Assembly: GCA_041641215.1 (NCBI GenBank)
Contig: JBEPYU010000004.1
Coordinates: 5,847 to 69,846, forward strand
Length of the DNA stretch: 64,000 nt
Source of the DNA: Thermaceae bacterium
GTDB lineage: Bacteria > Deinococcota > Deinococci > Deinococcales > Thermaceae
Direction: 5' to 3'
Shown: in pieces, positions 25,010-26,128 of the stretch
Numbering within the stretch: position 1 is the stretch's first letter
How the letters are laid out: every line of letters starts with the position of its first letter
Position numbers and translations under genes: made by a program
The notes under the pieces: generated by a model
The model's input: the letters and a program-made list of their open reading frames with translations, nothing else
Told to the model about the DNA's origin: nothing
Databases searched by the model: none

Positions 25010-25996
25010 ATGAAAGGGGCCGTGCGCGTTGCGGTCACCGGAGCCGCGGGCCAGATCGGCTATAGCCTCCTTTTCCGCATCGCCGCGGGGGAGATGCTGG
25101 GCCAGGACCAGCCCGTGATCCTCCAGCTCCTCGAAATCCCCCAGGCCCTCAAGGCCTTGGAGGGGATCCTCATGGAGCTCGAGGACTGCGCCTTCCCCCT
25201 CCTTAAGGGGGTGGTGGCCACGGACGACCCCCGGGTGGCCTTCAAGGATGCGGATTACGCCCTCCTCGTAGGGGCGGCCCCCAGGAAGGCGGGGATGGAA
25301 CGGCGGGACCTCCTTGGGATCAACGGGCGCATCTTCGCAGAACAGGGCCGGGCCCTAGCCGAGGTGGCCAAGCGGACGGTCAAGGTCCTGGTGGTGGGCA
25401 ACCCCGCGAACACCAACGCCCTCATCGCCTACAAAAACGCCCAGGGCCTAGACCCCAAGAACTTCACGGCCATGACCCGCCTGGACCACAACCGGGCCCT
25501 GGCCCAGCTCGCCAAGAAGACGGGGGTCCCCGTGGACCGGATCCGGAAGGTGGCGGTGTGGGGCAACCACTCCTCCACCATGTTCCCCGACCTCTTCCAC
25601 GCGGAGGTGGACGGGAAGCCCGCCCTGAGCCTCGTGGACATGGACTGGTACGAGGGGACCTTCATCCCTAAGGTGGCCGGGAGGGGAGCGGCCATCATCC
25701 AGGCCCGGGGGGCCTCGAGCGCGGCGAGCGCAGCCCACGCGGCCATCCTGCACATCCGGGACTGGGCCTTGGGCACCCGGGAGGGGGATTTCGTCTCCAT
25801 GGCCGTTCCCTCGGATGGGTCCTATGGGGTGCCCGAGGGGATCGTCTACTCCTTCCCCGTGACCGCAAAGGACGGGGAATACCGGATCGTCCAGGGCCTA
25901 GAGATCCCCGAGTTCGCCAGGAAACGGATGGAGGTCACCGCCAAGGAACTCCTGGACGAGATGGCCGAGGTTAAGGCCCTCGGCCTGATCCCCTAA
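25010..25996 (+). CDS. mdh: malate dehydrogenase
   Basis: [30 protein letters not shown]. Confidence 0.95.
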
Positions 25997-26115
25997 TACC
26001 CTTTACTTTTGGTTCGTGCGCTTCCAGGTTCCAAAAAAACTCCACGGGGACTTTCTACCGGGGCCCCCATGCGTCAGCGAAGCTGTGTTTTGGCGCAAGC
26101 CTGCATGGGGTGGTA
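25997..26115 (+). mobile_element. TNA-repeat copy b (119 bp; about 18-nt insertion in the hairpin arm)
   Basis: Flanked by TAA (25994-25996, the mdh stop codon) and TAA (26116-26118). Confidence 0.85.
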
Positions 26116-26128
26116 TAAGGGGGTCCCT

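Follow-up and report, generated by a model that had tools for sequence, protein, structure and literature searches.

What kind of repeat ends up exactly on the stop codons of genes, and how does it get there? This question is raised by a 64,000-nt stretch of DNA from a Thermaceae bacterium (assembly GCA_041641215.1, contig JBEPYU010000004.1, positions 5,847 to 69,846 of the forward strand; hereafter the window), in which a short repeat occurs in ten copies, with both strands represented, several of them sharing a triplet with the stop codon of a neighboring gene. [quoted passage not shown] The rule of placement on stop codons is statistically solid and apparently little described. Probably, insertions at stop codons are harmless to the host, and copies at such sites are therefore the ones that survive.

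The repeat is a short, dispersed element

The window belongs to a metagenome-assembled genome from a hot spring (G000), which is 1.78 Mb in size, consists of 142 contigs and has a GC content of 66.7%. We built a profile from seven window copies and searched it over all contigs of this genome using nhmmer. The search gave 245 matches, of which 92 align end to end. With one copy per ∼7 kb, the family accounts for much of the DNA between genes in this Thermus lineage. Full copies are 97–120 nt in length, with modes at 101–102 nt, and their median pairwise identity is 88%; in being short, non-coding and dispersed, the repeat agrees with a MITE.

The consensus is ∼101 nt long and reads TACCCTTTACTTTTGGTTCC...CTACCGGGGCCCCCATGCrGGC-loop-GCCyGCATGGGGTGGTA. 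As terminal inverted repeats, the 101-nt form shares just TACC(C/A)...(G/T)GGTA at its tips. Internally deleted copies are numerous, and some copies are solo hairpin modules of 35–42 nt; the solo form has perfect 17-nt inverted ends, TACCACCCCATGCGGGC. In some places the hairpin module forms tandem arrays, such as those of a 42-nt module (TACCGGGGCCCCCATGC...GGGGTGGTGT) at C58:3700-3810, C12:6800-6900 and C68:1940-2045, which suggests that an internal TACC may be usable as an alternative left end. About nine members form a 119-nt subfamily, whose hairpin carries an additional 17–18 nt in its 5′ arm; since this subfamily has multiplied, the family stayed active while it diversified. One position of the hairpin stem is variable and stays paired; in this genome it is G:C in ∼109 copies, A:T in 44 and mismatched in 9, and other species have T:A. 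Such covariation is expected alike of an RNA or DNA hairpin and of paired transposase sites.

The family, in the form of several subfamilies, is present in 15 of the 25 Thermus genomes searched (the genome of the window counted) and in none of 16 genomes that represent nine further genera of the order. The consensus has no match among 72,556 plasmids, and Rfam 15 at its gathering score gives no match in the 64-kb window.

Insertion duplicates a TNA triplet of the target

Identical 3-bp sequences flank 69 of the 92 end-to-end copies on both sides. The triplet is always T-N-A and all four middle bases occur; in the orientation of the element, there are 36 TCA, 13 TGA, 12 TTA and 8 TAA. As the middle base differs among copies and agrees within each copy, the triplet comes from the target and not from the element. 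At the sites of five window copies (c, g, h, i and j, described below), Thermus relatives have the orthologous locus without the element. Sites c and i carry a single copy of the triplet in the relatives, and the ancestral stop codon lies exactly at the insertion point. Derivation of the MITE from IS630/Tc1-mariner elements was rejected, because the duplicated target is 3 bp long, its middle base covarying, and not a 2-bp TA.

A GC-rich palindrome that is preceded by CTAC, abundant and located just downstream of genes could also be a repetitive extragenic palindrome (REP) or bacterial interspersed mosaic element (BIME), spread by a Y1 transposase of the REP-associated tyrosine transposase (RAYT) type, or a duplicated terminator, with coincidental TNA at its flanks. 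However, only target duplication explains why the middle base of the triplet varies from copy to copy and yet matches between the two sides in 69 of 92 cases, and the empty sites in relatives are precise. Moreover, a PF01797 search of this genome for a Y1 transposase gene came back empty, while the positive controls responded. Given the target duplication and the lack of a Y1/RAYT transposase, the repeat is not of the REP type; with the empty sites, we regard the REP/RAYT reading as effectively refuted, and palindromes of this sort with chance flanks as extremely improbable.

Window copies share their triplet with stop codons

Four copies in the window share their duplicated triplet with the stop codon of an adjacent gene, as the original prediction had claimed from the sequence alone, and TNA duplications could be read at each. 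Copy b (25994–26118, plus strand), the element of which spans 25997–26115 and is 119 nt in length, is flanked by TAA on both sides. The left TAA (25994–25996) is the stop codon of the malate dehydrogenase gene mdh, an open reading frame (ORF) of 328 residues (25010–25996; Ldh_1_N/C). The copy begins with TACCCTTTACTTTTGG and finishes with the GC-rich hairpin followed by GGGGTGGTA; the mdh product is one codon longer here, ending in ..LIP*, than in relatives, where it ends in ..LI* (..LGLI*). Copy c (30669–30776, plus strand; element 30672–30773) is flanked by TTA on both sides, and the right TTA (30774–30776) is the TAA stop codon of a minus-strand FmdB-like gene (Zn_ribbon_8, 78 residues, 30774–31010). 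The corresponding site is TTAGTCCTCC in two relatives (L018 and L020) and CTAGTCCTCC in a third (L019). Two relatives thus have TTAGTCC and one has CTAGTCC where the window has GGTA-TTA-GTCC, placing copy c on an ancestral stop codon.

Copy f (40755–40795, no strand assigned) is a 35-nt solo hairpin module (40758–40792) flanked by TGA on both sides. Its left TGA (40755–40757) is the stop codon of pilD (Peptidase_A24), and its last A, together with the TG of the right TGA, forms the ATG at 40792 that starts a LysM/NlpC-P60 gene. Copy i (62674–62781, minus strand; element 62677–62778) is likewise flanked by TGA, the left one (62674–62676) being the stop codon of an M20 peptidase gene. In four relatives the empty site reads CTATGAGCC, and the TGA of the M20 gene and the start codon of a YbaK-like (tRNA_edit) gene overlap as ATGA. 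In the window, the terminal A of the element and the TG of the distal duplicate recreate the ATG of the YbaK-like gene.

Two further placements that had been proposed were also borne out. Copy e (38018–38095, minus strand) is diverged and internally deleted; it begins with TGCCACCCC, and its hairpin end abuts the TAG stop codon of groEL (38018–38020). Copy h (56961–57067, minus strand; element 56964–57064) is flanked by TTA on both sides and lies within a NifX-like (Nitro_FeMo-Co) ORF, in which the TTA at 57065–57067 is the in-frame TAA that closes an N-terminal Nitro_FeMo-Co fragment of 40 residues. A relative (G008, L017) has the ORF uninterrupted and reads through the site (..GCCAAC..), whereas the reconstructed window site, ..CCCTAAC.., has one extra base; judging from this comparison, the NifX-like gene was probably already broken before copy h arrived. 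The coincidence of window copies with stop codons is therefore real.

Stop codons are over-represented genome-wide

To place these copies in the context of the whole genome, genes were called by a codon-usage log-odds model of our own, trained on long ORFs with high GC content at third codon positions (GC3); the model called 1,832 genes, covering 90% of the genome as coding sequence. The stop-codon test depends on the positions of the stops alone, which are fixed by the reading frame. For 41 of the 92 end-to-end copies (45%), a called gene ends at the element and its stop codon serves as a flanking triplet. With stricter gene sets, containing longer and higher-scoring genes, 35–38 stop-coincident copies remain; over the whole range of 35–41 copies, p is ∼1e-17 to 1e-18. 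As to the distance from the end of the element to the nearest upstream stop codon, 41 copies are at distance 0, compared to 18 over the next 1–60 nt.

Four null models were used. In the first, of the 5,208 TNA sites that are clear of sense codons, 459 (8.8%) are stop codons (binomial p ∼1e-18); even if all 948 TAA and TGA stops are counted as available, the upper bound is ∼17%. In the second, each of 80 copies was placed uniformly among the TNA sites of its own spacer; 16.4 stop-coincident copies are expected and 40 were observed (z = 9), a number reached in none of 100,000 simulations. The third model is confined to the stop codon and the 60 nt downstream of it, where 34% of copies are expected at distance 0 and 41 of 59 (69%) were found there (p = 5e-8). 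The fourth, in which sites carry weights from a flank matrix trained on the observed insertions, expects 12–14%, as against the 35 of 69 copies (51%) observed. Such a comparison of stop distances with random TNA sites had been put forward as the check, and no excess over availability as the outcome that would speak against the idea; what we found is that stop-coincident copies are 2–5 times more frequent than intergenic TNA availability predicts in all four models. An extended target motif was rejected as the source of the excess, since the preference for C-TSA-G is no more than mild and 12–14% are still expected under the weighted null.

The remaining distribution was also uneven. Although ∼87% of all TNA sites in the genome are coding, just four of the 92 copies lie strictly within called genes. 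Convergent spacers hold 26 of 80 copies (33%) versus 12% of the tolerated TNA sites, and divergent spacers 10 of 80 (12.5%) versus 25.5%. When all 245 matches with defined ends are considered, a stop codon is abutted by 67 of 199 hairpin ends and by 16 of 108 TACCCTTT ends, and ∼83 of the 948 TAA and TGA stops are abutted by an element. At ATGA-type insertions, 7 of the 41 stop-coincident copies have a called start codon that consists of the terminal A and the TG. By our own calls, stop usage in this genome is 810 TAG, 633 TGA and 315 TAA; TAG, the sole stop codon that is not a TNA triplet, is the commonest.

Probable survivorship of harmless insertions

How could a transposon come to mark the ends of reading frames? 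In the mechanism that we propose, a transposase supplied in trans would make a 3-bp staggered cut at T-N-A and thereby duplicate the triplet. The TNA triplets are TAA and TGA together with their reverse complements TTA and TCA, so each target is a stop triplet on one of the two strands. Upon insertion at a genuine stop codon, the proximal duplicate would rebuild the stop and leave the ORF unchanged, as the empty sites in relatives show for copies c and i. At ATGA overlaps, the terminal A of the element and the TG of the distal copy would rebuild the ATG as well. The triplet duplication and the rebuilding of stop codons and, at ATGA overlaps, of start codons were read directly from the sequence. 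Insertions inside genes would be lost. A stop codon would be the sole TNA at which insertion alters no codon, and also the one farthest from the signals of the next gene. In a genome that is 90% coding and 67% GC and in which in-gene landings are lost, stop codons are then the main harmless targets and accumulate copies. We consider it probable that the repeat is a non-autonomous Thermus MITE with a TNA target whose copies at stop codons survive because they do no harm, and we regard survivorship as the principal reason for the accumulation.

If so, a T-N-A cutter can enter a stop codon, and even an ATGA overlap within an operon, without changing any codon. The family would then be a quantified case of the target chemistry of a transposon meeting the genetic code, a compact, GC-rich genome turning stop codons into the main landing pads. 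For annotators it is a warning that the sequence right after many stop codons is mobile DNA and not a terminator.

Several observations count against survivorship as a sufficient account. The excess persists under the nulls confined to the same spacer (40 versus 16.4) and to the first 60 nt (69% versus 34%); copies that are off stop codons are not depleted in divergent, promoter-containing spacers, with 10 observed and 11.5 expected; and in an age test the stop-coincident copies were no older than the rest. Taken together, the excess under local nulls, the undepleted promoter spacers and the lack of an age gap indicate that plain survivorship may fall short. Nor does it predict the 2:1 bias in orientation relative to transcription that stop and non-stop copies show in two species. 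The genes were called by our own caller on a metagenome-assembled genome of 142 contigs, and unannotated functional DNA would swell the pool of sites regarded as tolerated. Empty alleles were not seen in contigs of the source metagenome, which covers this genome at a word depth of ∼150–230 and in which unitigs break at repeats, so this search is uninformative. Finally, no transposase-bearing element with TACC.. ends was found in this genome or among the listed matches of the complete genomes of four relatives (G021, G005, G019 and G043), the matches of the genomes G016 and G004 being left out.

The same observations bear on the possibility of active targeting, in which the transposition machinery prefers stop codons or the 3′ ends of genes beyond the bare TNA, through DNA structure or through coupling to the termination of transcription or translation. 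Under the local, the downstream 60-nt and the flank-weighted nulls, an excess at distance 0 remains; stop and non-stop copies are of the same age; orthologous stop codons have been struck repeatedly, as described below; and an insertion sequence (IS) of the IS5 family in this genome is likewise very selective among TNA sites, landing on those next to MITE ends. On the other hand, no motif separates the stop codons that were used from other used sites, half of the copies are off stop codons, including promoter-side spacers and pseudogenes, and we know of no DDE transposase that reads reading frames. In our judgment, active targeting is rather improbable. The original prediction had envisaged target preference and purifying selection funneling insertions to the 3′ boundaries of ORFs. 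The excess over TNA availability and the presence of only four of 92 copies in genes agree with that part; pure survivorship may account for the excess, or targeting or retention may contribute to it.

Orientation of the element and gene 3′ ends

In co-directional spacers, the hairpin end of the element is directed toward the upstream gene in 30 copies and away from it in 14. Copies away from stop codons show an equal bias (14:6). It was also observed in G021, a genome of another Thermus species, with 27 versus 9. There, inspection of the strands of 39 copies by eye, with no statistic, revealed no replichore pattern along the 2.07-Mb contig.

These numbers may point to retention by function, in which the GC-rich hairpin, with its stem of 12–13 bp, joins the 3′ end of the mRNA as a stabilizer or substitute terminator, and copies are kept by positive together with purifying selection. 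Such a role would be served best with the hairpin end turned toward the upstream gene. Besides the orientation bias in both species, hairpin ends abut stop codons more often than TACCCTTT ends do, and the variable position of the stem is kept paired. The latter is equally expected if both arms bind transposase, and the bias being the same off stop codons also argues against a function at gene ends.

Support also comes from two loci at which terminators of relatives are missing here, which survivorship does not explain either. Relatives have a GC hairpin terminator between mdh and the convergent aspartokinase gene; it is absent from this genome, where besides copy b just 10 nt of the spacer remain (region 26119–26131). 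In four relatives the genes for the M17 aminopeptidase and Fur are separated by a GC hairpin terminator, and the corresponding region of this genome (window 51674–51814) has copy g instead. Copy g (51712–51810, minus strand; element 51715–51807) lacks the last 6 nt of its hairpin end, is flanked by TCA on both sides and lies 1 nt from the stop codon (51812–51814) of the minus-strand Fur-family gene. However, at mdh, copy b is in the wrong orientation for a substitute terminator, with its TACCCTTT end first.

It had also been suggested that copies lie between a stop codon and the native terminator and are transcribed as part of the 3′ untranslated region, clearly so for groEL and the M20 gene. 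This holds at groEL, where copy e is followed by an 11-bp GC hairpin, GAAGGCCCCCC-CTTA-GGGGGGCCTTC (∼38100–38130), before the convergent M32 carboxypeptidase gene. It fails for the M20 gene; as the TGA of M20 overlaps the YbaK-like ATG in four relatives, no terminator follows M20 and what lies downstream is a decayed overlapping gene. At mdh and fur the situation is reversed. In assembled RNA contigs from runs resembling T. thermophilus HB8, a related copy at a stop codon is contiguous with its upstream gene, which is weakly consistent with co-transcription and with retention, the contigs breaking in the hairpin and carrying no information on strand or 3′ end.

The element itself was rejected as an intrinsic terminator. 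In one orientation UGGUA comes after its hairpin, and in the other the hairpin lies ∼26 nt before U7; no U-run comes directly after it, and the T7 run ∼26 nt further on is present in one orientation only. A terminator scan returned one weak site, a 5-bp stem inside the diverged copy e (38082–38069), and the total was no higher than in shuffled sequence. On balance, retention by function appears unlikely as the explanation of the placement. Its stronger form, in which the element is a working 3′-end module, with the hairpin kept facing the upstream gene as the first transcribed structure after the stop codon and replacing decayed native terminators at mdh and fur, is if anything slightly more doubtful. 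Were it true, a selfish, TNA-cutting MITE would be rewriting the ends of genes genome-wide. Our best reading is that the elements are primarily selfish DNA and that a role of the hairpin at mRNA 3′ ends is at most putative.

The same stop codons in other Thermus species

Under survivorship, the same orthologous stop codons would be struck repeatedly in different lineages. The G021 genome carries a different subfamily (TACCACCCCATGCTGGC...AAGGGTA), and 16 of its 39 hairpin ends abut the stop codon of an ORF that is open through all 149 fetched codons, with a GC3 no lower than 0.89; the mdh stop codon is among them. In G016, which we regard as T. thermophilus HB8, the stop codon of the FmdB-like gene bears a decayed copy from the subfamily of that species, whose other end faces the gene, and a weaker, apparently similar remnant lies at the same TTA in G043 (L020). 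HB8 and G004 have a copy of the element just past the mdh terminator. Copies at stop codons are located, for instance, near positions 1,286,794 and 357,728 of the HB8 chromosome. Orthologous stop codons were thus struck independently and more than once, that of mdh in G000 and G021 and that of the FmdB-like gene in G000 and in HB8, probably also in G043. With a related subfamily in their genomes, T. thermophilus HB8 and HB27 offer a testable system for the effect of the element on mRNA 3′ ends.

Remaining copies in the window

Three further copies of the window are a, d and j. Copy a (4899–4965, plus strand) is internally deleted; it retains its TACCCT.. start and the full hairpin end ..GGGGTGGTA, its flanks are TGA and TGG, and no called gene has its stop codon here. 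Two minus-strand ORF pieces flank this copy (window 4629–5058). Copy d (35823–35930, plus strand; element 35826–35927) has TCA and TGA as its flanks and is located upstream of groES, away from any stop codon. Copy j (62914–63021, minus strand; element 62917–63018), flanked by TAA on both sides, is inside the YbaK-like gene (62782–63330). This gene is intact in four relatives and a pseudogene here, severed upstream by copy i, interrupted by copy j and bearing further indels.

Candidates for the autonomous partner

Pairs of TACC termini 250–4000 nt apart in the genome of the window proved to be merely two MITEs around host DNA, and a 1.39-kb pair in G021 was rejected because it flanks citrate synthase. 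ISTth6 of the IS630 family was rejected as well; its ends are AGTGCC...GGCACT and its flanks are TA.

An IS5-family IS is co-resident in the genome of the window. It is 906 bp in length, encodes DUF4096 and DDE_Tnp_1, has the ends GAGGCTGTCGTAAAAG, and is ∼84% identical to elements annotated as 'IS5 family transposase' on T. thermophilus plasmids, where they are common. All eight of its observed ends are flanked by TNA, so a transposase of the TNA-cutting type is present in the genus. However, the IS ends GAGGCTGTCGTAAAAG show no likeness to the MITE ends TACCCTTTAC.. and TACCACCCCATGC.., and a repeat search of a locus with both IS and MITE found no shared termini. As the ends are unlike, the IS is at most a candidate for the mobilizing element.

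In several places the 906-bp IS lies directly against a MITE end, with one triplet in between (mostly TNA; TAG/CTA at one G021 junction, L048/L021). Such junctions involve three of the eight IS ends in the genome of the window, with either end of the IS, and three of the 39 MITE hairpin ends in G021; the loci are C2:465-1475, C22:300-445 and C37:12000-12140 in the former and L033, L036, L048 and L021:1600-1650 in the latter. The adjacency looks like targeting of MITE-flanking triplets by the IS, comparable to that of the ISs known to target REPs (PMC3184786).

Comparison with known systems

Neither a described Thermus MITE nor any relevant account of MITEs at stop codons emerged from searches of the literature. 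Two reviews of prokaryotic MITEs (PMC10969869 and PMC3184786) contain the term 'stop codon' nowhere and do not mention the Thermus family. A survey of the Thermus mobilome lists ISTth1–8 and IS1000 and no such element (PMC6352166).

In genomic position, the Thermus element is comparable to the REP and BIME sequences, which are also abundant GC-rich hairpins just past stop codons. Different from it, REPs produce no target duplication and depend on a RAYT, whereas the Thermus element duplicates TNA in a genome without a Y1 transposase. The Correia elements (NEMIS) of Neisseria, together with ERIC, RUP, SPRITE and Chunjie, resemble it in being ∼100–200 bp in size, foldable, intergenic and often co-transcribed with their neighbors. 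However, all of these have long terminal inverted repeats and other duplications, of TA or longer.

Among eukaryotic transposons, the Tourist MITEs of the PIF-Harbinger superfamily are small, hairpin-forming and non-coding, produce a 3-bp TWA or TNA duplication and reside near genes, all of which is like the Thermus element; their long terminal inverted repeats and eukaryotic hosts are not. To our knowledge, there is no report of Tourist or PIF-Harbinger elements piling up on the stop codons of compact operons.

The IS1031 and IS427-type groups of the ISfinder classification duplicate TNA. A MITE derived from an IS5-family element would be expected to have ends like those of its parent, and in this respect the Thermus element differs from the co-resident IS5-family IS. 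In its 3-bp TNA duplication, it is like the IS5-family ISs of the IS1031 and IS427 types and the MITEs derived from them.

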